From: Spirochaetales bacterium
GTDB taxonomy: Bacteria; Spirochaetota; Spirochaetia; DSM-27196; SLST01
Assembly: GCA_030642995.1 (NCBI GenBank)
Contig: DAOWMR010000015.1
Coordinates: 1 to 17,622 of the forward strand
Length of the DNA: 17,622 nucleotides
Reading direction: 5' to 3'
Shown here: positions 630 to 17,622 of the stretch, piece by piece
How positions within the stretch are numbered: position 1 is the first letter of the stretch
How the letters are laid out: the number at the start of each line of letters is the position of its first letter
Translations under genes and position numbers: made by a program
Notes under the pieces: model-generated
Databases searched by the model: none
The model's input: the letters and a program-made list of their open reading frames with translations, nothing else
Told to the model about the DNA's origin: nothing

Positions 630-781
630 GGGTTTCTCCTTGTTGGACGTCCGGGATGACGATACAGAGAGCTTCTTCTTTGCGATTGTATTTCATACTA
701 TTCAATCAATGAATGCAAATTCTGGAGCTGTGGAGCTGAAAACTGACTGATATCAACGAGCGAGATCCAAAACCAGGGGTT

Positions 782-1702: not shown

Positions 1703-1730
1703 GTTTCGTAACTGCGGGTGGTTCGATACA

Positions 1731-3407: not shown

Positions 3408-3442
3408 GCTCGCCGAGCCTCCGTGGCAGTGTAACTCTCACA

Positions 3443-4318: not shown

Positions 4319-4370
4319 GCTATCTCCCGGTATGTATTCGCGAGACTACTCTCCCTGCATGTCTGCGACT

Positions 4371-4580: not shown

Positions 4581-4604
4581 ATGTCCACTCCTCTTCTCTG
4601 TTGA

Positions 4605-5609
4605 TTATTGTAGACCGTTCCTGATTCTCTTGTTCAGGAACAGAAAAACCAGCGCGGTAATTGCCAGAACGAAACCGCTGTTCCTGAGGATCAATCCCCA
4701 GGTCGCCTCGTTGAGAATGATAGCATCCAGTGCTTTGTAGGCCCAGTAGAAGGGCGACCAGTAGAGCGCGATTTGCCAGCTGTCCGAGAGGAAGATGGCG
4801 CCGAACACCGAGCCGAAAACGGGGATAAACACGATCTTCATACTTGCCACGGCCTCAATGGGTTCGGTGTTAACCACGCCGATGCTGAATCCGATGATGA
4901 TTCCGATAAATGCAACGCTGATGAAGGATAGGGCAACCATGCCGTAGTTGATGTGTTCGAATCCCAGTATCCAGACAATGCCGAAGGCTCCGACAATCGG
5001 CACCAAAAAGGCAATTACGCTCTTTCCTATGATGAACTCTGTCTTCGAGATGGGAGCGACATTGATTGCCGATAGCGTGTTGCTCATCTTCTCTTCAACA
5101 AGGTTCAGGGTGATCAGCATCCCGCCGAAAACCGCACAGAAGATGATGAGGAAATTTGCTCCGTGCTGTTTGAGCGGCGAGAGTTTCCAGCCGATGTCCG
5201 ATATCCGCACCTCAACGGGGAGAACGACACCCTCATTTTCCAGGGCGTTCACCACCGACTGCAGCATTTGGAGGCCACCAGTTGTCTCATTACCCTGCTG
5301 GATGATGGTGTAACCGTCCTGTGTATTGACCAGTCCGAAGAAATCGTCGGTCTTCCGCACGCGGGCGTTGATACGTTCGATGTCCTCCAGCACCTCTACC
5401 TTGCCGTACCCCTCCAGGTACTCAATCACGATGAGATCAACCGAAGGATCAACCGCAATATTGATCGTCGTCGAACCGGCTCCCGGGATAATGACCTTGA
5501 GGAGGAGGAGGGCAAGCAGGAACGGTGCAATGCTGATATACAGGATGAGAAAATCTCGGGTACCGCTCTTCAGGTCTCTGCGGGTTACCGCCAAGATTCT
5601 TTTCAACAT
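4605..5609 (-). CDS. ABC-2 family transporter permease (second permease)
   Basis: About 6 TM helices with a large first extracytoplasmic loop, typical of ABC-2 permeases. Start moved to ATG 5609 ([13 protein letters not shown]) with a GAGGAGAG SD. The track start at 5654 would overlap the upstream permease by 31 nt. Confidence 0.75.
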
Positions 5610-5623
5610 ATGGTTACTCTCCT

Positions 5624-6658
5624 CTATACCGTCAGAGTTTTCTTGAAGCGCCAATTTGACAGCAGAAAGAAAACAACTCCGGCCAGCGTGAAGCCGAGGA
5701 CGTTCGCGTAGATGTACCCTAGGTTGCCGGCCTCATACAGGGTCTCCCTGAATGCAAAGAGCATGGGATAGGAAGGCAGGATCCTGATGATCAGCGGAGA
5801 GAATGCGGGGTTGTAGTAGGACACCGCGGCGAAGGCGAGGACGATGATGCTCATGTACAGCCATCCCATCGCTTTTGTCATGGTGTTGAAGAAACTGGCG
5901 ATGAACAGCCCGAGCGCCGATCCAAAGACGTTCGTAGCGATCAACAGCAGAATGAGGTGCAGGTAGTGGGCCTTGAGTCCTGCGATAAACGCCGCTGCGA
6001 TCAACCCCGACAACAGCCCCGTTACCAGTATGACCCCCACCTTGCCCAGCAGGTAGTGCCAGACTTTGGCAGGAGTGACCGCGAATGCTCGTATCGTGCC
6101 TTCTTCCTTGTCCAGAAAGATGTATGAAGCGATGATAAACAGCCCCATGAACGCAGCGTTCAGCGCCAGGAAAACCGGAAGCATGTTCAGGCGGTCGGAC
6201 AGTTTTTCGACGTTGCCTTCGAGAGTCGTGACGGTTGTCACGTTCTCGTATCCCGGCATTTCTGCCGCGAACCCGGACTCAATCGAGGTTTTGATGATGT
6301 TCCGGAATTTCTCGTCCTCGTACCCCTGCAGGATGTAGTCATAGACGATTCTGCCGTCTTCCAGACCAACGGCCAGACCAACACTGCCGCGGTCATTCGC
6401 GAGTTCGGTTTCCACTTCCTCTCTGGAGGGCAGAAGAATGATGTCGTATCCCTCCTGGGTGAGAGATTCTTCGGCGGCGGCCTGATAGGGTCCTTCCAGA
6501 TCAAGATGCGCGTACACGGTCACCTTTGGCTCGAAATACTCAGGAACGGCAAGAAGCATGACCGCGACGAAAACAAGCGCAAAACCGATCTCGATGTAGA
6601 TATAGAATCCCTTCAGCGATAACTGCATGTCCTTAAGAAAACTGTAGAGCAGTTTCAT
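5624..6658 (-). CDS. ABC-2 family transporter permease (first permease)
   Basis: 344-aa polytopic membrane protein. It has an N-terminal TM helix, a ~150-aa extracytoplasmic loop and then 5 TM helices. Its start abuts the stop of the ABC ATPase gene (6660). Confidence 0.75.
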
Positions 6659-6659
6659 C

Positions 6660-7514
6660 TTACTGAAGCCCCTTGCCGGTCACCTTGATGAAGATCTCTT
6701 CCAGGGTCGCTTCTTTGGTGTGCATCATCTCCACCTTGCCGGAGTTGACGATGTCATTCAGGTGGTGCATGTCCTTTTCGTCGATGAATGACAGGCGCTC
6801 TTTCTTCACGTCGCCGTTGTCCCGGTATTCCACTTCCACGAGTTGTTCCCCGTGCTGGAGCTTGAGGTTTCTCGGGGAATCGATGAGCTTGATCTCGCCG
6901 TCGATGATGAATGCGACGCGGTCGCAGAGTTCATCGGCGACAAACATGTTGTGGGTAGTGAGGAACACCGTCGTTCCCTTTTCCTTCTCACCCTTCACGA
7001 TCTCCTTGATGACGCTTGCAATTGCCGGGTCCAGGCCGGTGGTCGGCTCGTCAAGGAACCACATTTCGGGACTGTTGAGCATGCTTCGTGCAAAAGTAAG
7101 CCGGTGCTTCATGCCCTTGGAGTATTCTCCTGCCCGCTGTGTTGCGACGTGGTCCAGACCAACAAGCTCGAGCAACTCCTTCGGGTCTCGGGTGGGCACG
7201 TCAAAGAGCCTCCGGTAGAACTCGAGGTTCTCCAGCCCCGTGAGCTTGCCGTACACGTTGGACTGTTCGAAGGAGACACCGATCTTGTTGAACATGGCCC
7301 GGGGTGCCTTCTTCACATCGTAGCCTGCGACGGTGACGTTTCCCTTCTGCAGTGGAAGAAGGCCGGTCATGACACCCTGGGTTGTGGATTTGCCGGCGCC
7401 CGAAGGCCCGAGGAATCCGAAAACCTCACCCTTGGCAATTTCGAAACTTGCGTCCCGTACTGCGTATTTCTCATTATGAGAATAGGAATGATACAGCCCT
7501 TCAACCCTGATCAT
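6660..7514 (-). CDS. ABC transporter ATP-binding protein (ABC-2/DrrA-like)
   Basis: Walker A GPSGAGKST, signature/Walker B YSKGMKHRLTFARSML..FLDEPTTGLD, H-loop TTH. Start ATG 7514 (MIRVEGLYHSY) with an AAGGAG SD. The track GTG at 7535 contains that SD and is therefore unlikely. The start overlaps the SPFH gene end by about 14 nt. Confidence 0.9.
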   Translation of the reverse strand: MIRVEGLYHSYSHNEKYAVRDASFEIAKGEVFGFLGPSGAGKSTTQGVMTGLLPLQKGNVTVAGYDVKKAPRAMFNKIGVSFEQSNVYGKLTGLENLEFYRRLFDVPTRDPKELLELVGLDHVATQRAGEYSKGMKHRLTFARSMLNSPEMWFLDEPTTGLDPAIASVIKEIVKGEKEKGTTVFLTTHNMFVADELCDRVAFIIDGEIKLIDSPRNLKLQHGEQLVEVEYRDNGDVKKERLSFIDEKDMHHLNDIVNSGKVEMMHTKEATLEEIFIKVTGKGLQ

Positions 7515-8655
7515 CGTTCTGCGACTCCTTTTCACTTGATTCTTCGTCTGCCGGATTCCCGGCCCCCGGCTCTTGTAGCACCTGCTTTCCGTATGCGCTC
7601 GCTCCGAGCACCGTTCCGATGTTCATCGATTCCAGAGCGGAAGCGGGCACCAGCACCAACCCGCCCTTGTCCCGCATGCTTTCGTATATCATGTTCATGG
7701 CCCGCAGTTGCAGCGCCACCGGATCATCCCGATATTGCTCCGCAGCCTTCTTGAACGCTCCGGCAATCTCCACCTCGGCCGAACCGAGAATGATGCGAGA
7801 GCCCCGCTCCCGTTCGGCCTGTGCCTGACGGCTGAGAGCGTCCTCGAGCTCCGAGGGAATCAGGATCTCCTTGAACTCGACGGAGATGATGGTGATTCCC
7901 CATGGGTTGGTCTTGGCATCGACGATCTGCTGGATCTCGCCGCCGAGCCTTTCTCGTTCGCTGAGCAGCGTGGTCAGATCATTTGAACCAATGCTTGCCC
8001 TGAGGGCAGTTTGTGCGCTGAGCGACACCGCCTCCTCGAAGTTCTCCACTTCGAGCACGGCTTTTTGCGCGTCCCAGACCATCCAGAAAGCCAGCGCGTC
8101 TACATTCACCGGGACGGTGTCCCGCGTGAGGCTCTTCTCCGCCGAAAAGTCTGTCACCCGGATTCTCGTATCCACATAGCTGGCGGCCGAATCGATGAGC
8201 GGAAACAGGAGCAGCGCGCCGGGGCCCCGCACCTTGTGGAACTTGCCCAGCCGCAACACGATGATTTTGTCCCACTGGCTGATTACCTCCACGCCCGGCG
8301 CGATGAGAAAGCCGATTGTCAGCACGGCTGCCGCATACTGCAGATCGGTGCCGAACACTACGGGCAGCACCGCCCAGATACCGGCGATGATGGCGATAAC
8401 CATCGGCCAGTACGGCAGGATAAACAATACGGCGGCGGCTGCGATGACTCCGGCGGCCAGGTACGACGTCGTCTCGGGGTCCGGGAGCGAGGTTATCAGT
8501 GCCTGAACTCCAAGACCGAGGGCGATGAAAACCAGGATGACCAACGCCGATATGGTGTTGAATCTGAAATGCCCCCGTTGGCGTCCGTTTGGATGAGTTT
8601 TCCTCTGTGCCGTAAACAGGTTCGAGTGAGACCCAATTGCCTTTGTCATGTTCAT
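7501..8655 (-). CDS. SPFH/band-7 (stomatin/prohibitin-like) domain protein with a ~130-aa polytopic N-terminal extension and an acidic C-terminal tail
   Basis: The core IIVLRLGKFHKVRGPGALLLFPLIDS...TRDTVPVNVDALAFW...ERERLGGEIQQIVDAKTNPWGITIISVEFKEI is a classic SPFH domain. The N-terminus has 3-4 hydrophobic helices. The C-terminus is PADEESSEKESQNDDQG. The start ATG overlaps the GntR stop (ATGA at 8652-8655). Confidence 0.8.
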   Translation of the reverse strand: MNMTKAIGSHSNLFTAQRKTHPNGRQRGHFRFNTISALVILVFIALGLGVQALITSLPDPETTSYLAAGVIAAAAVLFILPYWPMVIAIIAGIWAVLPVVFGTDLQYAAAVLTIGFLIAPGVEVISQWDKIIVLRLGKFHKVRGPGALLLFPLIDSAASYVDTRIRVTDFSAEKSLTRDTVPVNVDALAFWMVWDAQKAVLEVENFEEAVSLSAQTALRASIGSNDLTTLLSERERLGGEIQQIVDAKTNPWGITIISVEFKEILIPSELEDALSRQAQAERERGSRIILGSAEVEIAGAFKKAAEQYRDDPVALQLRAMNMIYESMRDKGGLVLVPASALESMNIGTVLGASAYGKQVLQEPGAGNPADEESSEKESQNDDQG

Positions 8656-9059
8656 GTGGTTGCATCCTCCTTGAGGATCGAGAGATACTCAGCCGCTTCA
8701 ACAACGCTGAATCCATACGAAGAAGCCGTGGCCAGGAAAGTGCGAACCAACCCCGCCAGAATCTGTTTACGTTCCTGGGCCGTAAGCTCGATTTTCTTCT
8801 CGCTGATGAAAGTGCCCGTACCCTGCTGCGTATTGACGATCCCGCGGATTTCCAGCTCGCTGTACGCCCGTGCGACGGTATTCGGGTTGATCTTCAGGTC
8901 CACCGCCAGGGCTCGCACCGTCGGCAATTGGTTTCCCGTCCGCAATCTGCCGTCGGCGATGGCCAATTGTGTCTGCATAATGATTTGCCGGTAGAAAGGA
9001 ACTCCGCTCGTCGGATCGAGGAGAAAATGAATACCGCCGGGTTGCCGTTCAGTTGTCAT
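8652..9059 (-). CDS. GntR-family transcriptional regulator, YtrA subfamily (short C-terminal domain)
   Basis: 135 aa. The N-terminal winged HTH (GVPFYRQIIMQTQLAIADGRLRTGNQLPTVRALAVDLKINPNTVARAYSELEIRGIV) is typical of GntR. The C-terminal region is very short (~50 aa), as in YtrA-type regulators that head ABC-transporter operons. It is the first gene of the 7-gene minus-strand operon. Confidence 0.85.
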   Translation of the reverse strand: MTTERQPGGIHFLLDPTSGVPFYRQIIMQTQLAIADGRLRTGNQLPTVRALAVDLKINPNTVARAYSELEIRGIVNTQQGTGTFISEKKIELTAQERKQILAGLVRTFLATASSYGFSVVEAAEYLSILKEDATT

Positions 9060-9073
9060 AGACCGAACCCCTG

Positions 9074-9095
9074 TTGTACTGAATCGTTAGTACAA
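9074..9095. promoter_or_regulatory. candidate GntR operator: inverted repeat TTGTACT-N8-AGTACAA. A third AGTACAAT half-site lies at 9164-9171 and overlaps the putative ctaB -10
   Basis: Perfect 7-bp inverted repeat with a GTAC core, as GntR-family operators commonly have. It lies just downstream of a putative minus-strand promoter (-35 TTGCTG at 9128..9123, 17-nt spacer, -10 TATACT at 9105..9100) and 15-36 nt upstream of the GntR start codon. Confidence 0.45.
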
Positions 9096-9222
9096 TAGAA
9101 GTATAGGGCAGGTTTCGATTTACAGCAAGTGTATTCTGCGTGGTGGCAGCAAGGTTAAATTCGAGTACAATTTCAAGGTCTGGATGCGCAACACCGCCGG
9201 ACAATCACACAGGGAAAATCGG

Positions 9223-10137
9223 ATGGCCACGCAACGACGAACCATTGACGACACACGCAAACATCTGACGGCCAAACTGCGTCTCTACTGGAAGCTGATC
9301 AAGAGTCTCCAGACCGGATTGCTCCTTGCGACCGGCGTGGCGGGCTTCATGAGCGCCCGTTGCCCGGCTCTGGACTGGCGGACGCTACTAGGCATGTCCG
9401 GCAGCCTGTTTCTGGCGATAAGCGGCAGCACCGTTCTCAACATGTGGTACGACCGCGACATCGACGCGAAAATGCTGCGCACGTATTGGCGCCCGTTGCC
9501 ATCAGGCGGGGTCAGCCCGCGTGAGACTGTCGTGCTCGGCCTTGTGCTTTCCATACTGGGAGTGGGGTGGGCCGTAGCTATGCAACCGCTCTACGGACTC
9601 GTTGTGTTTGCCGGGCTGTTCATTGACGTCGTGGTCTACACGATCTGGCTCAAACGACGCACCGCCTGGTCCATTGTGTGGGGTGGGATCTCCGGCGGGA
9701 TGCCGATCCTGGCCGGGCGGGTGCTTGGCATTGCCGCTCTGACGGGAGTGGGGCAGATTGACCTGATCGGAGTTTTGCTGTCGCTGGGGATACTGTTCTG
9801 GATTCCCACCCACATCATGACGTTCAACATGCGCTATCATGATGACTATCAGACCGCGGGCGTGCCCACGTTCCCCTTAGCCTACAGTTTTCAGATGACG
9901 CGGGTGACTATCGCGGTGTCCAGTCTCATTGCGGCTCTGACGATGGGTGGAGCAGTAATGCTTCTCGGCATGACCTGGGGATACTTGCGGTTGCTGGCTG
10001 TGCTCAGCACAGCGCTACTCCTGATGGCCGTCTACAGCGTGGCCCGTCCTTCAGAGAAGATGAACTTTGGTCTCTTCAAGTACGCATCGATCTACATGTT
10101 GAGTCTGATGCTCTTGCTCGTCCTGGGGGCGATATGA
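9223..10137 (+). CDS. ctaB: protoheme IX farnesyltransferase (heme O synthase)
   Basis: UbiA-family membrane protein with the diagnostic heme O synthase motif LNMWYDRDIDAKMLRTYWRPLPSGG (compare N-x-YIDRDID-x-KM-x-RT-x-xRxLxxG). ATG 9223 has an AGGGA SD and a putative -10 TACAAT at 9166-9171. The track start 9184 would leave almost no leader, so 9223 is preferred. Confidence 0.85.
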   Translation: MATQRRTIDDTRKHLTAKLRLYWKLIKSLQTGLLLATGVAGFMSARCPALDWRTLLGMSGSLFLAISGSTVLNMWYDRDIDAKMLRTYWRPLPSGGVSPRETVVLGLVLSILGVGWAVAMQPLYGLVVFAGLFIDVVVYTIWLKRRTAWSIVWGGISGGMPILAGRVLGIAALTGVGQIDLIGVLLSLGILFWIPTHIMTFNMRYHDDYQTAGVPTFPLAYSFQMTRVTIAVSSLIAALTMGGAVMLLGMTWGYLRLLAVLSTALLLMAVYSVARPSEKMNFGLFKYASIYMLSLMLLLVLGAI

Positions 10138-10739
10138 AAAAGATCTCCGTCCTTGACCGGATAGTGCTTCTGATCGTCGGAGTGTTAGCGGCCTATCAGA
10201 TAGTCGTGGGGATCGAGGGATTCTGCACGCTGACCGTCTTGTGCTACACGATCGCCTTCGGCGTGCTTATGTTCGCCGCGCTGCTGTTCATCATCTTTGG
10301 GTTTGACATCCTGGACAGCAAGCTGGTCGTCATCGTGGCTGCGACCATCCCGCTCATCTTGTCGCTGGCACTCATCGCTGAATATCTGCCGTCTGTCAGG
10401 ACGGTGTACATGGCGTTTGCCGTCGTCGGATTCGGTGCGCTTGCCGTCACCCGGTATACCGCCTCCGGTGCTGTTGCGACGGTCGTTCTGGCTACGGTAC
10501 ACGGGATCGCCGGGCTGTTGATCTTCAGCCTGCCGATCATTATTGCCGTGCAGGGAAAGACTTCGCCGGGCTTCGCGTTGGTGGGAGTCGGCGGGGCGTT
10601 AATTGGCACCGGCGGGTCGCTGCTCCTCTTCCTGAAATTGGGCAGGCCTATCCTGTCAAGAGATACGATTTTCACCGTGCTGCCCGTGTTGCTGCTGTTC
10701 ATGACGGCGGCATTCGTGGCCGGGTTGGCGATGCGGTGA
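10134..10739 (+). CDS. uncharacterised polytopic membrane protein (201 aa, ~6 TM), translationally coupled to ctaB
   Basis: Its ATG overlaps the ctaB TGA (ATGA at 10134-10137). The protein is hydrophobic throughout and has no recognisable catalytic motif. Confidence 0.5.
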   Translation: MKKISVLDRIVLLIVGVLAAYQIVVGIEGFCTLTVLCYTIAFGVLMFAALLFIIFGFDILDSKLVVIVAATIPLILSLALIAEYLPSVRTVYMAFAVVGFGALAVTRYTASGAVATVVLATVHGIAGLLIFSLPIIIAVQGKTSPGFALVGVGGALIGTGGSLLLFLKLGRPILSRDTIFTVLPVLLLFMTAAFVAGLAMR

Positions 10740-10748
10740 GGGATTGAG

Positions 10749-11180
10749 ATGGTTGGGAATGAACGCCGGCTCTATGCACTGGCAGGGATCATGTGGAGTG
10801 GCGTCGGTGGCTACCTGGTTTTTCTGGCTTATGGTTGGCTCAAGGCGTTACCCTCATTACGTACCGTTCTTCTCGCAATCGCAGCGGTTCTATTTGCGCT
10901 GGTGATCTACCGTTTTGGCTTCTCTAATCTTGCGAAGAAGAACATCAAACGCATTTCGCTGCTCGAAGGCCGAGTATTCATCTGGGCATTTCAGAGTTGG
11001 CAAAGCTACATCATTATCCCGGTTATGATCGGTTTGGGCATCTTTCTCCGTAACTCACCGCTGCCAAAGCAGTATCTGGCCATCATGTACATCGGCATTG
11101 GTGGCGGCTTATTCTTGTCGAGCCTGCACTACTATGTTTGGCTCGTGCGACCATCTGAGTTGGAAAGGAGTGATGAGTGA
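10749..11180 (+). CDS. uncharacterised membrane protein (143 aa, ~4 TM)
   Basis: A hydrophobic ORF 10 nt downstream of the previous gene with a GAGGGA SD. No family recognised. Confidence 0.45.
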   Translation: MVGNERRLYALAGIMWSGVGGYLVFLAYGWLKALPSLRTVLLAIAAVLFALVIYRFGFSNLAKKNIKRISLLEGRVFIWAFQSWQSYIIIPVMIGLGIFLRNSPLPKQYLAIMYIGIGGGLFLSSLHYYVWLVRPSELERSDE

Positions 11181-11857
11181 TGAATACAATGGCCAAGATC
11201 TTGTGGGTGATCGCAATCATACTGATTGGACTGACGGCGGCAATAACGCTGGTGAGCGGCATCGGTACGTACTGCGTTGCCTGGAACGCCGAGCAATACG
11301 CGGAATTTGCCAACTTTGAGCCGTACAAACCGCTCTACAAGGCGATTGTCGTTCTCACGATTATGGTCGCGCTCGTTGCTGTCGTGGATGTTTATGGCAT
11401 GATACGACGCAAGAAGTGGGCGTACCTGGCCACGCTGTTCACGCTGATCGCAGGTATTGTCGTGGGTGGTACGCACGTGTATTACTCGACCATGTTGCGG
11501 GGAACCGGTATGCCGGGTACCGTCCGGGTTTATCTCTCAGTACTCACACTCGTCGTCCTGCTATTGCTGCGGATTCCCGGCATCTGGCAGGCGATCAACT
11601 CCGGGAAACCATCTGCGGGATCGGGGGCTGGAACGGCAGCCGGTCTGGCGATGAGTGTGTGTGGATTGGCCGTCGTTGCGACGCCCATGTGGGCCGGCCC
11701 GACGCATACTTCTGCCGGCTACAATTGGGTGAATGTCCTGTTGGTGCCCCTGATTGTGGGTGGCGTGGTGTTGATGCTGGCGGGGATAAGTCTGTTGGTG
11801 TTTCCCAAACTGCAAGTGCGTATCGGGAAGCGTCCCCAACCAGTCACGGCACATTAG
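11180..11857 (+). CDS. uncharacterised membrane protein (225 aa, ~6 TM, Gly/Ala-rich central loop)
   Basis: ATG 11180 has an AAGGAG SD (9-nt spacer) and overlaps the upstream TGA by 1 nt. The track GTG start is at 11177. Its stop TAG (11855-11857) overlaps the stop TAA (11856..11854) of the convergent FGE-like gene. Confidence 0.5.
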   Translation: MNTMAKILWVIAIILIGLTAAITLVSGIGTYCVAWNAEQYAEFANFEPYKPLYKAIVVLTIMVALVAVVDVYGMIRRKKWAYLATLFTLIAGIVVGGTHVYYSTMLRGTGMPGTVRVYLSVLTLVVLLLLRIPGIWQAINSGKPSAGSGAGTAAGLAMSVCGLAVVATPMWAGPTHTSAGYNWVNVLLVPLIVGGVVLMLAGISLLVFPKLQVRIGKRPQPVTAH

Positions 11858-12819
11858 GGATTGCGAGCACAACGGAATCCAACTGCCGGACCATAGTACA
11901 CCGGCCCGGCGCTATTCTGTTTCCAGACACGCAGATCCATTTCATAGGTATAAAAACTGCCGCCGCGCATATGACGATAATGCTGGTTCGAGAAATCATC
12001 TCCAACCCACTGCCAGACATTCCCGGCCATGTCATAGAGGCCGTACGGGCTGGCCGAATCGAGTGTTTCGTAATCTTCGTAGGTGTCACCGTTGTAGAAA
12101 CCCACGGGAGTGGTATTGCCCAGCTTCCCAAACATCTTTTCGAACAAGTCGAAAGAAGAATAGGAATTGGCGTTGTTGCCATGAATTTCAGTGCCCCAGG
12201 GGAAAGGCAATCCATACCCGTCCACTAGTTTGGTACCACGAGCGGCTTTCTCCCATTCGGTATCACTGGGGAGCCGCCAACCGTAGAACTCGGCGTACGC
12301 ATTGGCGCCGAACCATGAGACCATTGTCATGGGGTGATTGGCGTATTCAGGGATTGCTGTGAATGATTGCCCATTAAAGGTCAACCGCAAGCCTTCTTCA
12401 TCCAGCGGGATGTAGAGTTTGTCCCCGGCCTTGATTTCAAACTCGTGCTTGTAACCCTGGAAAGGTTCGCCTGCATAGAAACCATACACACCTTCAAGAA
12501 CCGCAACGGATTCCCCGAACTCAACTTCCACCTCACCCACACCAATCTCGCCGGCAGCCAAAGCTTCGTTGAGAAAATCGGCATACTGTTGGTTGGTTAC
12601 GTCGGTGACCATGATCTCATAGTCGTAGTCGACCATGGTCATGTGATCGTGCTGCCCGTAGGGGAACTCACCGGCGGGAATGACAGCCCAGGAATCGGGG
12701 TCAATCCCGGTATCGATAGAGGGCGGTACAATTGCTCCGACGCTGGATGTCGGCGTACAGGCGGTTGTCAACAAAGCAAGCACCGTAAGCAAGATCATGA
12801 GATGTATCAAACGTTTCAT
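11854..12819 (-). CDS. formylglycine-generating-enzyme (FGE/SUMF1) family domain lipoprotein
   Basis: FGE-sulfatase domain signatures: WAVIPAGEFPYG, VTNQQYADFLN, GWRLPSDTEWEKAARG, YDMAGNVWQWVGD, RGGSFY, VGFRCARNP. There is an N-terminal signal peptide with a lipobox-like LLTTAC. Its ATG overlaps the stop of the upstream membrane protein (ATGA at 12816-12819). Confidence 0.85.
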   Translation of the reverse strand: MKRLIHLMILLTVLALLTTACTPTSSVGAIVPPSIDTGIDPDSWAVIPAGEFPYGQHDHMTMVDYDYEIMVTDVTNQQYADFLNEALAAGEIGVGEVEVEFGESVAVLEGVYGFYAGEPFQGYKHEFEIKAGDKLYIPLDEEGLRLTFNGQSFTAIPEYANHPMTMVSWFGANAYAEFYGWRLPSDTEWEKAARGTKLVDGYGLPFPWGTEIHGNNANSYSSFDLFEKMFGKLGNTTPVGFYNGDTYEDYETLDSASPYGLYDMAGNVWQWVGDDFSNQHYRHMRGGSFYTYEMDLRVWKQNSAGPVYYGPAVGFRCARNP

Positions 12820-14357
12820 TCTGACACCCCCTTCAGGGTTTCTTCGAGTTTTTCCAGTTTTCGCTTCTGTTCTGCGATTTCAGACTCGGCGCTGAGTTTC
12901 GTCTCAGCCGCCAGTTCCTGCGCCCAGCGGCCGTTCCTGGTGAGGAGATCGTACAATCGCCACAGCATGAAGACACACAGAATGATGAGCACAACCCCCA
13001 GGCCGATATCGGTCAACAGCATGGTCCAGTTGACGATGGATTGCTGCGCAACTTCGGTGACGAAGAGGCGCTTCATCGAAAAGATAGTCACCGCGCCAAA
13101 AGCCAGATCGGACATCAGGATCAATACCCACCCGAACCATTTGCGGGCTTTGCCCTTCAGGCCCGACAGATCCGCGAAATACATCAGGATGATGGTTGCG
13201 ATCAGCGCTGCGAGGATGTGCCAGTGTCCGGTAAGGGTGACCCGTTCTTCCCGATGCGGCCAGACACGGAATATCTCCTCCAATTTGACTGCCAGAAAAA
13301 TGCCAACGCCACTGACGGTAAAATTCATGAAGACCATCTGCCAACCCGGGCCGAACTTCAACGGGTCGTGCAGGAGCGCCTTGATTTTCTGCCAGGCGTT
13401 GGGTTTTTCGATACCCAGTTCCGCGATGCGATTCTTGATTTGTTGATCCCAGGAGAAGATCACATATAGCAGGGCGGCTGTCATCACCAGGACGGACCCA
13501 ATATAGATGATGTTGTGTGCCCACGTGAACCACACAATGGACAGCGCGCCAATCGTGATCACAATTGTGCCGGAAATCATCAGCCACATGGCGATCTTGT
13601 GGAAGATCCCTTTGAACTTCATCCAGCGGCCCACAATCAATGTGAGGGCGACCGCGATCAGGGTCAGCATGATATGCAGGTGGCCTACAATGGCCTTCTG
13701 CAAAGCTGTCTTCAGGGGGATGCGGATCAGGTCTTCCGCCAGGAAGGTTTCGTGGCCGTTACCCCAATACGAGCCGGTCACCGCGCCAAAAGAAGCGGAG
13801 ATCAACGCGGCAGCAACCATCACGAAGAAGGCGGCTCGCTCCAGATCAATACCTTTCCGGGTGTGTGCGTAGGGCGAATCCTCCGGCAAGAGGTATTCCT
13901 TTTTCCAGGGCCACAACGCGGCGCCTAACAGCAAACCCGCGAAGAAGACTAACGACTGGCCAACCAGGAACAGACCGTGGTAGACGAAATTGTGGCCAAA
14001 GTAGCCAAAGATCAAGCCGAAAATGATAGCCGTCAAATAGCCGATGGTGATGGTGGTGTTGATCATGGTCTGTTCGTGTTTTTTCATCGGCACCATACCG
14101 GTGATGAAATACACTTCAATTGCCAGGATCGTCATGGCAATGGTGTGATAGAGCATGATGATTCGCCCTTCACGTTCAGCCTGAACCAAATCCATATTGA
14201 GGAGGCGGACGGTGATGTCTCTGACACCCCATTCGACCATCGGGCCGGAGAGCGTTCCCCAGACGGCGGTTGCCACCGCAACGACAGCCATTGCGACCAG
14301 CGCCAATCCCTTGGTCGAAGTGAAGAGATAGGTAAGTCGTTTTTTTAGTCCTTGCAT
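12816..14357 (-). CDS. uncharacterised 12-TM histidine-rich integral membrane protein with a C-terminal coiled-coil tail
   Basis: 513 aa from ATG 14357 (GGAGG SD, 7-nt spacer). The track TTG start is at 14381. Twelve hydrophobic helices are predicted. Intramembrane or helix-edge histidines occur at TM2 (LYHTIAM), after TM3 (GHNFVYHG), TM6 (GHLHIML), after TM7 (AHN) and at TM10 (GHWHIL). The C-terminus ELAAETKLSAESEIAEQKRKLEKLEETLKGVSE is a charged heptad-like region. No named family recognised. Confidence 0.6.
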   Translation of the reverse strand: MQGLKKRLTYLFTSTKGLALVAMAVVAVATAVWGTLSGPMVEWGVRDITVRLLNMDLVQAEREGRIIMLYHTIAMTILAIEVYFITGMVPMKKHEQTMINTTITIGYLTAIIFGLIFGYFGHNFVYHGLFLVGQSLVFFAGLLLGAALWPWKKEYLLPEDSPYAHTRKGIDLERAAFFVMVAAALISASFGAVTGSYWGNGHETFLAEDLIRIPLKTALQKAIVGHLHIMLTLIAVALTLIVGRWMKFKGIFHKIAMWLMISGTIVITIGALSIVWFTWAHNIIYIGSVLVMTAALLYVIFSWDQQIKNRIAELGIEKPNAWQKIKALLHDPLKFGPGWQMVFMNFTVSGVGIFLAVKLEEIFRVWPHREERVTLTGHWHILAALIATIILMYFADLSGLKGKARKWFGWVLILMSDLAFGAVTIFSMKRLFVTEVAQQSIVNWTMLLTDIGLGVVLIILCVFMLWRLYDLLTRNGRWAQELAAETKLSAESEIAEQKRKLEKLEETLKGVSE

Positions 14358-14439
14358 ATCTATGCCTCCAAATAGGGACAAACAGTCAACTTGATTGTGA
14401 AAGGTTCCACGAAGTTATCATGAAATATCGAGAGAGTCC

Positions 14440-14453
14440 TTGACCAAGGTCAA
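14440..14453. promoter_or_regulatory. perfect 14-bp palindrome TTGACCAAGGTCAA (operator copy 1) with a conserved flank, upstream of the histidine-rich membrane protein gene
   Basis: TTGACC-AA-GGTCAA is a perfect inverted repeat, 89 nt upstream of ATG 14357. Its left half could double as a -35 (TTGACC, 18-nt spacer, GATATT on the minus strand). A second copy is at 16257-16270. Confidence 0.6.
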
Positions 14454-14469
14454 GTTCCAAGGAAACCAC

Positions 14470-14497
14470 CCCCTCTCCGGCAAGAACCAGAGAGGGG
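14470..14497 (-). terminator. candidate rho-independent terminator for the upstream two-gene minus-strand unit
   Basis: GC-rich stem CCCCTCTCCGG / CCAGAGAGGGG (11 bp, one mismatch) with a 6-nt loop. On the minus-strand transcript it is followed by GUGGUUUCCUUGG (a weak U-tract). It lies 46 nt downstream of the stop at 14544 and just upstream of the operator/promoter for the next gene. Confidence 0.4.
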
Positions 14498-14543
14498 CGA
14501 TCTCGCGGGCGAAGGCAGAAGAAGGATTTACCCTGACTTCAGA

Positions 14544-15341
14544 TCAACTTTCGTGTTCACCGGAGTCTGCAATCAGCTTCTGTGTGCCTGGCAGCAAGAT
14601 GATGACAAGAAGCACCGTGCTGATAACCGGAGCCGGCAAGAACATTGAGAATCGACCCAATTGCACCGTGTTGGTGATTCCCATCGGGTAAGCACCCATC
14701 ATGGACATCATGGCTGCAAAAACACCCAACGGCACAGTCCACTTCTTCTTCTTGAGGACAGCAAAGATGAACATTGCCCAGGCGGCGGCGCCCCACCAGG
14801 TAACTTGCTGCGACATGGCAAACATACCGTTCATGAAGCTATCGTCCACGGACAACTGGAAATAGGCAATCACGCCGACCCCGTCCATAAACGTCAAGAC
14901 ATATGCCAAACCGGCCACAAAGAGCAGGGCGATGACCTTCATTTTGACACGGCCAATCAGCAGCATACCAAACCATAGAACGGTCGCCAGCAGGAAGACC
15001 CAAATCGTGGGAAAAGGCATCCCGATGCTGGAGGGTGGGATGATCGGGAAAAAGCCGACAAGCATCTGGACGGTGGCCGCCACAGTACCCCAGAACCAGG
15101 CCCATTCCAGTTTTTTCACGAAGCCGTAGAGCACGGCCCCCCACAATGCGCCGGCAGTTATGCCCAGCCAGCCAAGCAGGGCGAAGACGATCTGAACAGT
15201 AACGGCTTCATCCGGGCGACCACCGGCAATTTTGCCCGCAATGGTCGGGTTGTAGATGTCCGCCATCAAGTAGAATGTCAGCAATCCGGTCAGGACACCG
15301 ACTATGGCGAGTACAATACCGAGCTTATTGTTTCCTTTCAT
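14544..15341 (-). CDS. uncharacterised Trp-rich polytopic membrane protein (265 aa, ~8 TM), paralog of the upstream gene
   Basis: ATG 15341 has a GGAGA SD (6-nt spacer), 8 nt after the upstream stop. The track start is at 15362. It shares N-terminal VLAIVGVLTGLL, central K-EW-F, GMPFPT, TWW and KKKKW with the 15352-16188 product (VLAIVIGLL, KGEEW, GFPIP, TWW, KRKGWW). Confidence 0.55.
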   Translation of the reverse strand: MKGNNKLGIVLAIVGVLTGLLTFYLMADIYNPTIAGKIAGGRPDEAVTVQIVFALLGWLGITAGALWGAVLYGFVKKLEWAWFWGTVAATVQMLVGFFPIIPPSSIGMPFPTIWVFLLATVLWFGMLLIGRVKMKVIALLFVAGLAYVLTFMDGVGVIAYFQLSVDDSFMNGMFAMSQQVTWWGAAAWAMFIFAVLKKKKWTVPLGVFAAMMSMMGAYPMGITNTVQLGRFSMFLPAPVISTVLLVIILLPGTQKLIADSGEHES

Positions 15342-15351
15342 GATGATTCTC

Positions 15352-16188
15352 CTATTGATCATCCTTGATCAGCTTCTTCTTGAAATACGGAACCAACGTG
15401 AAGAAAAGGACGCCGATGGACAACAGTGCACCGTAAAGATAGTCCATCGTCTTCGTGCGGATAAACTGCGTGGGGGCGTCAATCGCCAGGATGGCAACCG
15501 CAGCAATGACGGCAAACCACCAGCCTTTGCGTTTGCCGACAGCCAACAGCGGAATGGAGATGACCAGCAGGATAACCGCCACCCAGTTAACCTCACCGGC
15601 CCAGCTGAACAACCACCACGTGAAGTCCTGATACATGGGATATCCAGGGCGGGTCCACATGGTTCGCTGGGCGCCAATACCGATGGTGAAGGCGTGAGTA
15701 GCCAACATGCCGATGAAAGTCAGGGCGCCGAAACGAGTCCACTTTTGCATTCTTTCGGCCTTGCGCAGGAAAATGAAGCTCCAATAACCTACCAGACCAG
15801 TGACCGAAATCAACAGCGGGATCGGGAAGCCGTCCACCCAACTGACGTACGGGAGGAACATGAACATACCGCCAATTGCAGGCAGCGCAAACAGAGTTAC
15901 GGCAAGCGGATAGGTCCACTCTTCGCCTTTCCTGATTTCTTGTGAGATCACGATCAGGGCGGCGCCTGCGACAAAAATGACGGCTCGCCAGATCGGATAG
16001 AAGAAATCAAAGAGCGGAATCCCGCTTTCAAACGTGGGGTGACCGGCGTTGATATGATCGATCAACCCGACCAATACTCGTTCAAGCGATTTCTGGACGA
16101 TGAAAGGGACCACGCCCACCATCAACAGGCCAATAACAATGGCGAGAACCGACATGACCGTTCGGTTTTTCTGTGAAGTTTCTTTCAT
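15352..16188 (-). CDS. uncharacterised Trp-rich polytopic membrane protein (278 aa, ~8 TM), paralog of the downstream gene
   Basis: ATG 16188 (MKETSQKN) has an AGGAGAG SD (7-nt spacer). The track start at 16227 lacks an SD. The protein is hydrophobic and has a DHINAGHPTFESG loop. See the paralog evidence above. Confidence 0.55.
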   Translation of the reverse strand: MKETSQKNRTVMSVLAIVIGLLMVGVVPFIVQKSLERVLVGLIDHINAGHPTFESGIPLFDFFYPIWRAVIFVAGAALIVISQEIRKGEEWTYPLAVTLFALPAIGGMFMFLPYVSWVDGFPIPLLISVTGLVGYWSFIFLRKAERMQKWTRFGALTFIGMLATHAFTIGIGAQRTMWTRPGYPMYQDFTWWLFSWAGEVNWVAVILLVISIPLLAVGKRKGWWFAVIAAVAILAIDAPTQFIRTKTMDYLYGALLSIGVLFFTLVPYFKKKLIKDDQ

Positions 16189-16256
16189 TTTCACTCTCCT
16201 AGGAAAAAAATTGCGTTCTAGTGTCATGAGAATCGCAGATAAATTCGAAAGAGTAA

Positions 16257-16270
16257 TTGACCCAGGTCAA
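16257..16270. promoter_or_regulatory. perfect 14-bp palindrome TTGACCCAGGTCAA (operator copy 2) in the divergent region between the membrane-protein unit and the RpiR gene
   Basis: It has the same TTGACC-N2-GGTCAA architecture as 14440-14453. The 17 nt on its low-coordinate side (tcgaaagagtaa) resemble the flank of copy 1 (tcgagagagtcc). Over 31 nt the two copies are 24/31 identical. It lies 75 nt upstream of ATG 16188. Confidence 0.6.
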
Positions 16271-16373
16271 TCGCGGGGGCAGCACGATCAACGCCGACGG
16301 GCGACATCATCCCCCAAAACAGAAATAAAACTTGCAGTGATTGAGCAAGAAGAAAGAAACTTTCCAAAAATCG

Positions 16374-16403
16374 TTGACAAAGGAATATTTCGGTACCCAT
16401 AAT
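16374..16403 (+). promoter_or_regulatory. sigma70-like promoter for the RpiR gene (TTGACA-N18-CATAAT)
   Basis: TTGACA at 16374-16379 and CATAAT at 16398-16403. The predicted transcription start is ~25 nt upstream of ATG 16438. Motif-based only. Confidence 0.4.
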
Positions 16404-16437
16404 GGGAAACACCGAAAGAGAACGGGAAGGAACCGAA

Positions 16438-17328
16438 ATGATAACAAAATCAGACAGCTATCATCAGATCATTGAAGTATATGACGATCTGTCTAGACAG
16501 CAGAAGAAGATTGCTGATGGGATCATCAATCGGTGCGACGAGATCGTCTTCTTTTCAATTACCCAGCTCGCGAATTTTCTCGGGGTGAGCGAAGCTACGA
16601 TTGTCCGGTTTGCTCAGCATCTGGGGCACAAGGGCTTCCCCGAACTGAAGGAAGACCTGGTGAAGTACTACCGGGAATATCTTACTCCCGGGGCACGGAT
16701 GAGACGATCCATTGAAGAATTCCCCGATGACCCTCTTCTGTATAAGAGCCATGCGGCACGTGAGATACAGCTGCTGGAGGAATCGCTCCAGGCAGTTGAC
16801 AACGATAGTTTTGTTCAAGCTGTTGAAGCGATCGTTCAGGCCGAGCGGATATTTCTTTTCGGTAACGGAGGGAATGAATGCCTTGCCAATCATCTCACCT
16901 TTCGTCTCTCCCGTTTCAAGTTGAAAGCCATACAGCAATCCGTTTCGGGAAAAAATCTCTTTGAAAAATTCCTGCAGATAGAAAAGAGCGATCTCATAAT
17001 CGCCTATCATTTCTATAAACCAACAATAGACTTCAGGCGGCTCATGGAGGTGAGTGCTGAACGGGAGGTTCCTGTTCTCCTCATGACTGATTCCCTCGTG
17101 CCGCCGATGATTCGTCACGCCAAAATCGTTCTTTTTGCTCCGAGGGGCTCAGCCGGGACCTTCCATTCTCAGGTTGTCCCAATGGCCATCAACAACGCCC
17201 TGATAAATGGCGTAGCCAGCAAGCTCGGGAACAAGGCTGTGAAGGCATTACAGGAGTTGAGTGATATGAGGCAAAAACATTATTTCAGTGACTTTTCCTC
17301 ACTGATATCACATGAAAACGATCAATGA
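16438..17328 (+). CDS. RpiR/MurR-family transcriptional regulator (N-terminal HTH_6 + C-terminal SIS domain)
   Basis: The HTH FSITQLANFLGVSEATIVRFAQHLGHKGFPELK is characteristic of RpiR. The C-terminal region (IFLFGNGGNECLANHL...) is SIS-like. ATG 16438 (MITKSDSY) with a GGAAGG SD gives 296 aa, typical for the family. The track start at 16402 adds 12 aa. Confidence 0.85.
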   Translation: MITKSDSYHQIIEVYDDLSRQQKKIADGIINRCDEIVFFSITQLANFLGVSEATIVRFAQHLGHKGFPELKEDLVKYYREYLTPGARMRRSIEEFPDDPLLYKSHAAREIQLLEESLQAVDNDSFVQAVEAIVQAERIFLFGNGGNECLANHLTFRLSRFKLKAIQQSVSGKNLFEKFLQIEKSDLIIAYHFYKPTIDFRRLMEVSAEREVPVLLMTDSLVPPMIRHAKIVLFAPRGSAGTFHSQVVPMAINNALINGVASKLGNKAVKALQELSDMRQKHYFSDFSSLISHENDQ

Positions 17329-17622
17329 ACCACGAAATTCTCCTCGGCGCAGTTTGCTATCAGGAGTATTCCAGAGACTATCTTGATTTTCTTGAACTAG
17401 CGGCCGAGCTCAAACTCTCCTGGGTCGAGTTCAAATACGAACCACCTCTCTGTTATCGAAGTAGATCGCGCAGATATGTCGATATTCGGAAACAGGCTGA
17501 TGATTTCGGAATCAACCTGTCCATGCACACCGCATTTGACGGTTTGAATATCGCCTCCCTGGATGACAAGGAGCGAGCCCGGTCTCTTGATACTGTACAG
17601 GAGTCGATTGATGCAGCTGCGC
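17325..17622 (+). CDS. sugar phosphate isomerase/epimerase (xylose-isomerase-like TIM barrel) family protein, N-terminal part only
   Basis: Hand translation from ATG 17325 gives MNHEILLGAVCYQEYSRDYLDFLELAAELKLSWVEFKY...ADDFGINLSMHTAFDGLNIASLDDKERARSLDTVQESIDAA, a typical AP-endonuclease-2/xylose-isomerase-like barrel N-terminus. The ATG overlaps the RpiR TGA (ATGA). The ORF runs to the window end, so the track did not list it. Confidence 0.6.
   Translation, partial: MNHEILLGAVCYQEYSRDYLDFLELAAELKLSWVEFKYEPPLCYRSRSRRYVDIRKQADDFGINLSMHTAFDGLNIASLDDKERARSLDTVQESIDAAA

Follow-up and report, generated by a model that had tools for sequence, protein, structure and literature searches.

A predicted heme-copper oxidase-type membrane protein with a linked FGE-fold lipoprotein and heme O synthase-like gene in a Spirochaetales bacterium

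A 513-residue, 12-TM membrane protein, here termed M513, is tied genetically to an FGE-fold lipoprotein, small membrane proteins and a gene of the heme O synthase type. Its structure model has the 12-helix fold of the catalytic subunit (subunit I) of the heme-copper oxidases (HCOs). We propose, with a probability of roughly 0.6, that the module is an undescribed family of the HCO superfamily, probably an NO- or O2-reducing enzyme with heme O. The locus belongs to a Spirochaetales bacterium (contig DAOWMR010000015.1, assembly GCA_030642995.1); positions 1 to 17,622, a stretch of 17,622 nucleotides called the window below, were analyzed. A sequence-only reading had earlier singled out the locus as a membrane module. 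What it observed is confirmed as real, and its interpretation is partly supported.

Organization of the locus

The four minus-strand genes previously described as two units are present, and their open reading frames match that description. The upstream pair, parA (15352..16188) and parB (14544..15341), encodes Trp-rich 2x4-TM membrane proteins. The downstream pair encodes M513 (12816..14357), whose ATG is preceded by GGAGG, and the FGE/SUMF-fold lipoprotein (11854..12819); the reported ATGA stop/start overlap of these two genes is real. The reading frame of parB extends to 15362, the likelier start being the ATG at 15341 behind AGGAGA. The coordinates of parA are those of the ORF call; its homologs start with MKETSQ, and the predicted transcription start upstream of it argues for initiation at the ATG at 16188.

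All four genes belong to the module, but so does a plus-strand block at 9184..11857, so the limits first given to it (11854-16270) were too narrow. The block consists of the gene of a UbiA prenyltransferase of the CtaB/CyoE, heme O synthase-like type (9184..10137) and the genes of three small membrane proteins: the polytopic mem201 (10134..10739), mem143 (10749..11180) and mem226 (11177..11857), the stop codon of which overlaps that of the FGE-like gene. The block is convergent to the M513 and FGE-like genes here and colinear with them in most genomes with related loci. MenA is also encoded in the window.

The paralogy claimed for parA and parB holds at the profile level (hhalign probability 97.5%, E = 8e-12, 248 columns) but not in pairwise BLASTP, which gives a non-significant E of 0.2. 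No conserved metal ligands were found in parA. The membrane proteins are rightly called Trp-rich, with 12 tryptophans in the 278 residues of parA, 11 in the 272 of parB and 19 in the 513 of M513. To call M513 His-rich was an overstatement: it has 14 histidines in 513 residues, and the notable point is that seven of them are conserved. Automatic JGI naming labels some M513 homologs as MFS permeases.

Fold of M513

In Foldseek searches with the M513 model the top rank fell independently to subunit I of the ba3 oxidase (TM 0.54-0.61). Confidence in the model is moderate (pLDDT 75.7, with three loops below 50). In fold and length the model resembles the catalytic subunits of the superfamily, namely cbb3 CcoN (3mk7), cNOR NorB (4xyd), ba3 subunit I (3eh3/1xme) and COX1, and M513 is predicted from it to be a very divergent homolog of these subunits.

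The relationship is invisible to sequence comparison. The Pfam COX1 profile (PF00115) matched none of 17 family members at E values up to 1, phmmer and hmmsearch against the PDB with M513 returned nothing, and hhalign of the M513 profile against HCO profiles gave probabilities below 1%. The earlier statement that none of the membrane proteins matches a recognised family needs correcting for M513: its sequence has no COX1 match, but its model has the fold of HCO subunit I. This fold makes the redox system first envisaged more specific rather than refuting it.

The fold match might instead be convergent or a modelling artefact, the module being an unrelated membrane system such as a transporter or a sensor, with the FGE-like protein as the catalyst of a maturation system. 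The lack of sequence-level homology between M513 and the HCOs, the weak Foldseek E-values (0.04) and the MFS permease names of some homologs all speak for this explanation. We regard it as very unlikely. Profile searches placed M513 in no transporter family.

Histidines and putative cofactor sites

The conserved histidines of M513 are H71 (TM2), H127 (TM4), H226 and H228 (TM6), H281 (at the TM7/8 junction), and H378 and H380 (TM10). Relatives down to 22% identity all keep H127, H226, H228, H281 and H378, and nearly all keep H71 and H380. Five of the six canonical HCO histidine ligands appear to be kept in their canonical motif context, ligands being assigned by helix position and local motifs on a model of moderate confidence. 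H71 and H380, candidate ligands of a low-spin heme and each at least 90% conserved, lie at the same helix depth as bovine H61 and H378. H378 of M513, the first histidine of the TM10 HxH and a candidate proximal ligand of a high-spin heme, is invariant within H-W-H, which corresponds to bovine H-F-H by position only. The other motifs compare with those of bovine COX1 as G-H-L-H-I-M with G-H-P-E-V-Y and W-A-H-N with W-A-H-H. M513 shares with the HCO catalytic subunits the TM2 histidine, the G-H of TM6, the W-A-H of TM7/8, the HxH of TM10 and a link to heme O synthesis; it differs from them in having two additional invariant histidines, H127 and H228.

The three-histidine CuB/FeB site is incomplete in M513: G-H226 and W-A-H281 are there, but the position of the second histidine of the HH pair holds an asparagine in the window and is variable across the family. 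H228 might substitute for the lost ligand. The cross-linked His-Tyr cofactor is absent, position i+4 being Met230, and no tyrosine near the site is conserved across the M513 family; Y285 is conserved in the close clade only. Nor is there a glutamate at H226+4, where cNOR and qNOR carry their FeB ligand; the conserved E208 and D209 lie in the loop that precedes the TM6 site.

The loss of the cross-linked tyrosine and of one CuB histidine leads us to guess that M513 reduces or detoxifies NO or some similar small oxidant, or scavenges O2 at a low level; proton-pumping O2 respiration is not expected. It is unlikely that M513 is a high-affinity terminal oxidase, one that would use heme O and the altered copper site to scavenge oxygen traces in the mostly anaerobic Anaerolineae. 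Every HCO oxygen reductase known so far depends on the His-Tyr cofactor and on three histidines at CuB (PMC11214002), whereas M513 has a methionine at the tyrosine position and lacks both a family-wide tyrosine and the second CuB histidine.

Other divergent HCO families were described recently. In the eNOR, sNOR, gNOR, nNOR and NOD families of Murali et al. (2024) the active-site tyrosine is missing and the active site is altered, one active-site histidine being swapped as well in gNOR; these families are proposed NO reductases of largely uncultured taxa (PMC11214002). M513 is like them in its relation to the HCOs, its lack of the tyrosine and its altered site. It differs in that those families could be placed in the HCO sequence alignment and tree, whereas M513 escapes sequence profiles, and in its partner proteins, since eNOR, sNOR, gNOR and nNOR encode second subunits of the CuA or cupredoxin type (PMC11214002).

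The FGE-fold lipoprotein

The assignment of the protein encoded downstream of M513 as an FGE-domain lipoprotein is borne out by the Pfam FGE-sulfatase domain (PF03781, E = 2e-36, residues 43-319) and by Cys21 at the end of the signal peptide, a residue shared by at least 93% of 77 homologs. His59 and His125 are conserved and specific to the family. The copper-binding catalytic cysteine pair, C-x4-C, is absent: FLCHESYC of the T. curvata FGE aligns with FYTYEM. Among solved structures the best match is SUMF2/pFGE, a paralog without activity (1y4j, E = 5e-14). Without the catalytic cysteines, a role as an FGE-type maturase or oxygenase is unlikely. In combining the FGE-sulfatase fold with the loss of the copper-binding pair the protein resembles pFGE/SUMF2, PorK/GldK and NirV; like PorK/GldK it is a lipoprotein, and like the NirV gene its gene adjoins that of a (putative) metalloenzyme rather than of a sulfatase. 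A sulfatase partner is lacking, as first noted, both in the window and among the recurrent neighbor families of 82 related loci.

The FGE-like gene directly follows the M513 gene in all 82 related loci, as the co-localisation proposed at the outset would have it. In one lineage the two proteins are fused through an extra TM helix (P0122, found on at least seven contigs). It is this specific coupling to an HCO-fold membrane protein that sets the protein apart from other orphan FGE-fold proteins. Of the 'metal/heme-dependent redox or maturation system' first suggested, the adjacency and the fusion support a redox module of M513 and the lipoprotein, but the part of an FGE-type maturase is made unlikely by the missing cysteine pair. 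The lipoprotein is proposed to be an extracytoplasmic partner subunit of M513. The FGE partner is missing from all 78 distant loci with M513-like genes and is thus not essential to the M513 family.

Heme O synthase, accessory proteins and distribution

The UbiA protein scores 205.2 bits (E = 1.6e-60) against the heme O synthase profile TIGR01473, just below the trusted cutoff of 210.3, and carries the conserved DRDIDxxMxRT-type motif of these enzymes, NMWYDRDIDAKMLRT. Its gene is linked to M513 in 75 of the 82 related loci and to M513 relatives of about 30% identity, some of them archaeal. In 18 of 48 distant loci it is the next gene after an M513-like gene, and in Hodarchaeales (Asgard archaea) it likewise follows one directly. 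The most deeply conserved partner is mem201, M513-linked in 69 of the 82 loci; its counterparts in Hodarchaeales and Infirmifilum (hhalign 98.9% and 99.4%) lie beside M513-like genes. It has an invariant histidine, His123, and no Pfam or PDB match. The gene of mem226 occurs in 48 of the 82 loci, and mem143 is only an occasional member (15/82). In 47 of the 82 loci parB lies upstream of M513 at a distance of up to 10 kb, and in distant clades it directly precedes M513-like genes.

A redox subunit II, whether a CuA cupredoxin or a cytochrome c, is not encoded in the window; where HCO complexes have such a subunit, the M513 operon has the FGE-fold lipoprotein. The neighbors of M513 in related loci include a polyferredoxin with the Pfam Fer4_5 domain (25 loci), a lipoprotein cytochrome c (no more than 12 of 81) and DUF4405 (10). 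Locus L001 has a Cu-ATPase with an HMA protein, and in four distant loci a canonical, tyrosine-less HCO is encoded immediately upstream of the M513-like gene. This redox and copper context speaks for the proposed HCO-type enzyme.

The neighborhoods bear on a further explanation, in which M513 carries electrons with two hemes, handles heme O or modifies heme, or assists the assembly of other oxidases or of the FGE-fold protein. A heme O synthase gene beside a histidine-bearing membrane protein recalls CtaB-CtaA, and in the four distant loci just named the M513-like gene directly follows that of a canonical HCO. Two bis-His hemes could also result from the incomplete CuB site together with the additional HxH of TM6; if that HxH made the second heme six-coordinate, M513 would be an electron carrier rather than a catalyst. 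Against this, most related loci have no canonical HCO nearby, the predicted fold is that of the catalytic subunit and not of CtaA, and the very high conservation of the M513 sequence (72-88% across the order) and its own regulated operon fit an enzyme core. We therefore consider a carrier or assembly role quite unlikely.

The family comprises more than 3,000 proteins in a database clustered at 90% identity. In a collection of one genome per species, relatives occur at 471 matching places, mostly in Anaerolineae, an abundant group of sediments, digesters and wastewater. Members are also found in Hodarchaeales and in the cultured archaeon Infirmifilum lucidum.

Regulation

The perfect palindrome TTGACC-N2-GGTCAA occurs exactly twice in the window, and none of 200 shuffles gave even one copy. 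As first described, the copies precede the two units and have flanking positions in common; both are intergenic. They read TTGAC-CTTG-GTCAA on the minus strand upstream of M513 (14440..14453) and TTGAC-CTGG-GTCAA upstream of parA (16257..16270). Each is followed by a predicted extended -10 on the minus strand, TG-A-TAACTT at 14412..14420 for M513 and TG-C-GATTCT at 16229..16237 for parA, with transcription starts predicted near 14405 and 16222. The center of the M513 box lies about 41.5 nt before the predicted start, and this position suggests that the palindromes are sites of a CRP/FNR-type activator. The 'duplicated operator' first proposed is thus right in that one type of site is common to both units, but the sites look like class II CRP/FNR boxes in sequence and position rather than a repressor operator.

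Only the closest relative has the exact palindrome, but a related box at the same position is found in 40 of 81 other related loci. The consensus of these 40 loci, TTTGnCTTTTnnnAAAGAC-N13-TGTGnTAnnnT, has its 5-N4-5 box at -41.5; the layout of the M513 promoter, with its predicted start, was deduced from it, the -10 lying at the same offset from the box as TGTGnTAnnnT. The boxes resemble class II FNR/CRP promoters in the 14-bp 5-N4-5 TTGAC-N4-GTCAA near -41.5, the degenerate, overlapped -35 and the extended -10. They differ in that the starts are predicted, the half-site drifts between genomes, and no CRP/FNR regulator gene is found in the window; genes of this family lie within 10 kb in 45 of the 82 related loci.

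Related boxes precede parA and parB homologs, and those of the form TTGCG-TTAA-CGCAA match the NnrR-type consensus. NnrS, a member of the NnrR regulon, is a 12-TM protein that contains heme and copper and is expressed from a box of the CRP/FNR family, and M513 is like it as a polytopic, histidine-bearing membrane protein under such a box. M513 differs in its fold match, which is to HCO subunit I, and the Pfam NnrS profile did not match the M513 family at E values up to 1. For NnrS no link with a heme O synthase or an FGE-fold protein is known.

Between parB and the M513 promoter a stable GC-rich hairpin (minus strand, about 14462..14504) is a probable terminator. The 91-nt intergenic stretch that bears it (14455-14545) folds at -40.6 kcal/mol (z = -2.86), and none of 200 shuffles was as stable. 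The hairpin first described is there, but its U-tract is weak and a terminator scan did not call it.

Proposed mechanism

In an M513 enzyme reducing NO or O2, a low-spin heme would be bound by H71 and H380, and a high-spin heme O, the product of the linked synthase, by H378. In the altered site H226 and H281 would hold a non-heme metal, possibly helped by H228 or M230. The FGE-fold lipoprotein would lie on the outer side of the membrane, where a cupredoxin or cytochrome c subunit II is usual, as a cap that provides structure, binds substrate or handles metal, and mem201 with its invariant His123, parA and parB would be accessory membrane subunits. Menaquinol is the probable source of electrons, in keeping with the MenA encoded in the window; in other genomes they may arrive through a NapH/CcoG-like polyferredoxin or the lipoprotein cytochrome c. 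A CRP/FNR-family sensor acting on both boxes would activate both operons in response to redox, O2 or NO.

A bolder version, which we hold to be unlikely, is that an HCO-fold heme O core has recruited the FGE-fold domain into an enzyme of a chemistry new to the superfamily, in which, for example, the hemes feed electrons or an activated oxidant to a substrate on the outer-face cap. Such an enzyme would represent a deep, unseen HCO branch common to Chloroflexota, Asgard archaea and Thermoproteota and would bear on the origin of oxygen and NO reductases.

Significance

HCOs carry out aerobic respiration and much of the biological reduction of NO, which produces N2O, and the inventory of HCOs in genomes is drawn from sequence profiles. 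The M513 family is widespread yet has been missed by such profiles, and the module points to an undescribed branch of this central family of respiratory enzymes. Cultured hosts exist, which makes the hypothesis directly testable. If M513 does bind heme O and reduce NO or O2, the superfamily would be enlarged by an active-site architecture and a type of partner subunit that are both new to it, the rooting of O2 and NO reductase evolution would gain a very deep branch, and metabolic reconstructions of 'strict anaerobes' would change.

Organization of the genes

The four minus-strand open reading frames that the sequence-only reading had recognized at 11854-16188 are all present as described there. 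The first encodes parA (15352-16188), one of two Trp-rich membrane proteins; its homologs begin with MKETSQ, and an alternative ATG at 16227 lies upstream of the predicted transcription start. The open reading frame of the second, parB, spans 14544-15362 on the same strand, and the ATG at 15341, preceded by AGGAGA, is the likelier start. The M513 gene (12816-14357, minus strand), which has GGAGG ahead of its ATG, encodes a 513-residue protein. Its stop codon is overlapped, as ATGA, by the ATG of the gene for the FGE-like lipoprotein (11854-12819, minus strand). The UbiA block (9184-11857, plus strand), consisting of a heme O synthase-like prenyltransferase gene (UbiA) and small membrane protein genes beside it, is inverted relative to most genomes, and the stop codons of one of these small genes, mem226, and of the FGE-like gene overlap in the window.

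parA and parB, which had been taken for two paralogous proteins of about eight transmembrane (TM) helices, have no BLASTP similarity (E = 0.2), yet a full-length alignment is obtained between profiles of 32 and 39 homologs (hhalign probability 97.5%, E = 8e-12). The paralogy thus holds at the profile level only; it is real but old. Of the hairpin terminator proposed between the two transcription units, the hairpin is confirmed and its role as a terminator is probable. A stable hairpin is located between parB and the first palindrome, where the 91-nt intergenic stretch folds at -40.6 kcal/mol (z = -2.9); the hairpin has only a weak U-tract and was not called in the terminator scan.

The upstream genes are ordinary: the menaquinone prenyltransferase MenA (782-1702), an NAD-malic enzyme (1683-3407) and an SPFH/HflK-like protein (7501-8655). 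An ATP-binding protein (6660-7535) has a DrrA-type ABC protein as its best NCBIfam match, and two unannotated membrane open reading frames at 4605-6658 resemble its permeases. Long antisense open reading frames opposite the membrane protein genes, for example at 12367-13446 and 15304-15945 (both plus strand), have low-complexity translations rich in Arg, Ser and Pro; most likely they do not code for protein and only shadow the real genes.

Fold and putative ligands of M513

M513 had been described as belonging to no recognized family, and all searches of Pfam, NCBIfam and PDB sequences, with the single sequence and with a profile, are consistent with that description. The same searches gave no match for 16 relatives with identity down to 22%, and they assigned no family to mem201 (a small membrane protein encoded beside UbiA), parA or parB. 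The protein is nevertheless strongly conserved, with more than 3,188 protein matches. The best 120 of these are 72-88% identical and 504-540 residues long, nearly all of 510-513 residues; the named proteins among them, annotated as 'hypothetical', are from MAGs of Anaerolineales or Chloroflexota.

An AlphaFold2 model of M513, calculated from 35 sequences without templates (pLDDT 75.7, pTM 0.81), has 12 TM helices and a C-terminal helix, arranged in the fold of the heme-copper oxidase/oxidoreductase (HCO) superfamily. When the model was compared with solved chains, the highest score, 21.9, was obtained with CcoN of the cbb3 oxidase (385 residues aligned, 11% identity), followed by NorB of cNOR (19.1), six COX1, ba3, bo3 and caa3 chains (17.0-18.5) and qNOR (14.5). 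The next matches, unrelated helical bundles, scored 11.3 or less. Foldseek independently placed subunit I of the T. thermophilus ba3 oxidase at the top (TM-score 0.54-0.61), with weak E-values.

The conserved histidines of the model are located in TM2, TM4, TM6, the TM7/8 junction and TM10. H127, H226, H228, H281 and H378 are invariant among relatives of 22-58% identity, and for H71 and H380 conservation among them is 90% or higher. Local motifs of M513 and bovine COX1 (a sequence identical to 1occ_A) agree at all four ligand-bearing sites: L-Y-H71 corresponds to T-A-H61 in TM2, G-H226-L-H228-I-M230 to G-H240-P-E242-V-Y244 in TM6, W-A-H281-N to W-A-H290-H291 at the TM7/8 junction, and H378-W-H380 to H376-F-H378 in TM10. 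Based on this agreement, M513 would keep five of the six canonical HCO ligands in their motif context. The second histidine of CuB, the non-heme metal site, is missing, a Met occupies the position of the cross-linked Tyr, and H127 and H228 are additional invariant histidines. A non-catalytic role for M513, as a di-heme carrier or heme O-handling protein, is quite unlikely.

The relationship is invisible to profile methods. Comparison of the family profile with bovine COX1 and with HCO sequences from the fetched loci gave hhalign probabilities below 1%, and a forced global alignment was uninformative. A spurious fold match would fit these results and the weak Foldseek E-values; it is very improbable. 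M513 appears to be a hidden member of the HCO superfamily, visible through its modeled fold and short motifs only.

The FGE-like protein

The FGE-like protein has the FGE-sulfatase fold (E = 2e-36); among solved structures, the inactive paralog SUMF2/pFGE is closest to it. In an alignment with bacterial FGE, the copper-binding FLCHESYC is replaced by FYTYEM, and the protein is therefore probably no formylglycine-generating enzyme. No sulfatase is linked to it, as had been noted before. Its family-specific conserved residues include H59 and H125.

Composition of the module

The comparison of gene content covered at most 10 kb on each side of M513 in 82 related loci, of which L001 and L002 are from encoding contigs and the other 80 from one-per-species genomes. 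The FGE-like gene is found directly 3' of M513 in all 82. It is followed by UbiA in 75 loci, mem201 in 69 and mem226 in 48, in that order; mem143 occurs in 15, in variable position. Upstream of M513, parB is present in 47 of the loci and parA in 32. M513, the FGE-like gene, UbiA, mem201 and mem226 share one strand in most genomes, the inverted UbiA block being found in the window and its closest relative, L003. Against the equivalog model for heme O synthase, UbiA reaches 205 bits (cutoff 210); its sequence includes the DRDIDxxMxRT motif. A regex search found no canonical HCO in these 82 loci.

Clustering of all open reading frames near M513 revealed further recurrent neighbors. A membrane polyferredoxin, typically encoded between parA and parB, occurs in 25 loci (e.g. 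L014:8276-9130 and L033:8127-9005). It has a Pfam Fer4_5 domain and two motifs each of the CX3CP and 4Fe-4S types, and we read it as NapH/CcoG-like. In the window, where this gene is missing, parA and parB abut. A lipoprotein monoheme cytochrome c is encoded in 12 loci, DUF4405 in 10 and CRP/FNR-family regulators in 45.

Two mem201-like genes are often found in the same locus (100 members in 64 loci). One of the related loci, L050, belongs to a MAG that bears the name of Brevefilum fermentans, a cultured species. Two M513-FGE-UbiA clusters are found on different contigs of one MAG (L023 and L029, both isolate ERP019367_co2_135), which indicates paralogous modules in some genomes. L003 (JAHOYX010000112.1), whose M513 is 88% identical to that of the window and which shares the inverted order, was deposited as a 'Spirochaetales bacterium' MAG. 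All other close relatives are Anaerolineae or Chloroflexota, and the L003 contig is probably mis-binned.

Distant relatives

When 1.84 billion cluster representatives were searched exhaustively with the profile, only 343 M513 matches were obtained, mostly fragments. The full-length ones, with identities near 30%, include proteins of Candidatus Hodarchaeales (Asgard archaea) and QOJ79028.1 of the cultured archaeon Infirmifilum lucidum (Thermoproteota). The gene order in Hodarchaeales (L085/L086) is mem201-like, M513-like, heme O synthase-like, and in I. lucidum (L089, CP062310.1) a mem201-like gene is located directly 5' of the M513-like gene. Among 78 distant loci (71 from a metagenome scan and seven from encoding-contig look-ups), UbiA is immediately downstream of the M513-like gene in 18 of the 48 with enough sequence, and a parA/B-like gene immediately upstream in 11 of 50; an FGE gene is present in none of the 78. 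These deep-relative neighborhoods show M513 to be anciently linked with heme O synthase, with mem201 and with parA/B, and the FGE partner to be a later but tight addition. The tightness is seen in P0122 (785 residues, 54% identical), in which M513 is fused to an FGE domain via an extra hydrophobic helix, which would place this domain outside the cell. The fusion occurs on at least seven contigs, near UbiA, a ferredoxin-domain gene and DUF423.

In four distant loci (L111, L121, L125 and L132) a Pfam-COX1 HCO is encoded immediately upstream of the M513-like gene. This canonical HCO has no active-site Tyr (G-H-P-L-N) and is preceded by a 140-residue open reading frame, cupredoxin-like by eye, with no Pfam match. 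Its reading as a gNOR, with Asp for His, was rejected, the alignment showing a normal G-H-P without Tyr. Hemerythrin-domain and CRP-family genes were observed in other distant loci (L120, L156 and L157).

Promoters

Each unit had been said to follow the same palindrome under one regulator. TTGACC-N2-GGTCAA occurs exactly twice in the window, at 14440-14453 and 16257-16270, in upstream intergenic regions with flanking positions in common; none of 200 dinucleotide-preserving shuffles had even one copy. The exact form, TTGA[CT]-N4-[AG]TCAA, is retained in L003 only (as TTGATCTCAGTCAA), and a broader motif analysis was therefore made. Related boxes were found at the same position in 40 other loci, with the consensus TTTGnCTTTTnnnAAAGAC-N13-TGTGnTAnnnT. 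TGnTAnnnT is read as an extended -10 element, which centers a 5-N4-5 box (TTGnn-N4-nnCAA) at -41.5, with a conserved GAC at -33 to -31; in the window, transcription is predicted to start near 14405 and 16222. The predicted layout is that of class II FNR/CRP-activated promoters. In the window, a TG plus a TAnnnT-like hexamer is located at 14412-14420 (TGATAACTT) and 16229-16237 (TGCGATTCT), at an identical offset from the two palindromes. Promoters of parA/parB homologs elsewhere have TTTGCTTTAAAGCAAAGAC or TTTGCGTTAACGCAAAGAC with the same spacing; the latter includes TTGCG-N4-CGCAA, which we take to be an NnrR-type box. In the first copy, TTGACC could also be read as an ordinary -35 element, separated by 18 nt from GATATT; the fit of this reading is poorer for the second copy and for the 40-locus consensus.

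The palindromes thus look like putative activator sites that drift in sequence between genomes, and the shared promoter architecture makes a single regulator for both units plausible. There is no CRP/FNR gene within the window, the divergent neighbor of parA being a MurR/RpiR-family regulator (16402-17328). The TTGACC-N2-GGTCAA box is missing from the inverted UbiA block, which may therefore be under a control different from that of the M513 and parA units. Another palindrome, TTGTACT-N8-AGTACAA (9074-9095), precedes the heme O synthase-like gene by about 90 nt.

In at least 10 of the 40 related promoters, including those of L009, L043, L054, L029, L021, L005, L028, L050 and L072, a perfect inverted repeat of 8-12 bp, located within the 75 nt downstream of the box, brackets the predicted -10. 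Its arms differ between genomes and stay complementary (e.g. CGCTGGCCCGGC...GCCGGGCCAGCG). This repeat, which the window lacks, may act as a second operator, as a leader structure or as a promoter-overlapping terminator for the gene upstream.

Proposed function and relation to known families

We postulate that M513 holds a low-spin heme between H71 and H380 and a high-spin heme O on H378, the latter beside an altered non-heme metal site formed by H226, H281 and perhaps H228 or M230. Subunit II would be replaced by the FGE-fold lipoprotein as an outer cap. Electrons would come from menaquinol (MenA is encoded in the window) and, in other genomes, from the polyferredoxin or cytochrome c. By published criteria, a missing His-Tyr cofactor counts against proton-pumping O2 reduction (PMC11214002), and M513 is therefore unlikely to be such a reductase. 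Its activity would most likely be to reduce or detoxify NO, or to scavenge O2; that M513 is an O2-scavenging oxidase as such is rather unlikely.

The divergent HCO families described in recent work were recognized and classified from sequence alignments and phylogeny, and in four of them, eNOR, sNOR, gNOR and nNOR, the second subunit is of the CuA type or a cupredoxin (PMC11214002). The M513 family differs from them in both sequence detectability and second subunit. No description of it was found in the literature open without subscription. We rate the M513 family as new within the HCO superfamily, and its active-site pattern and set of subunits as new as well. I. lucidum, which is cultured and has a complete 1.6-Mb genome, could serve as an experimental system for the family.
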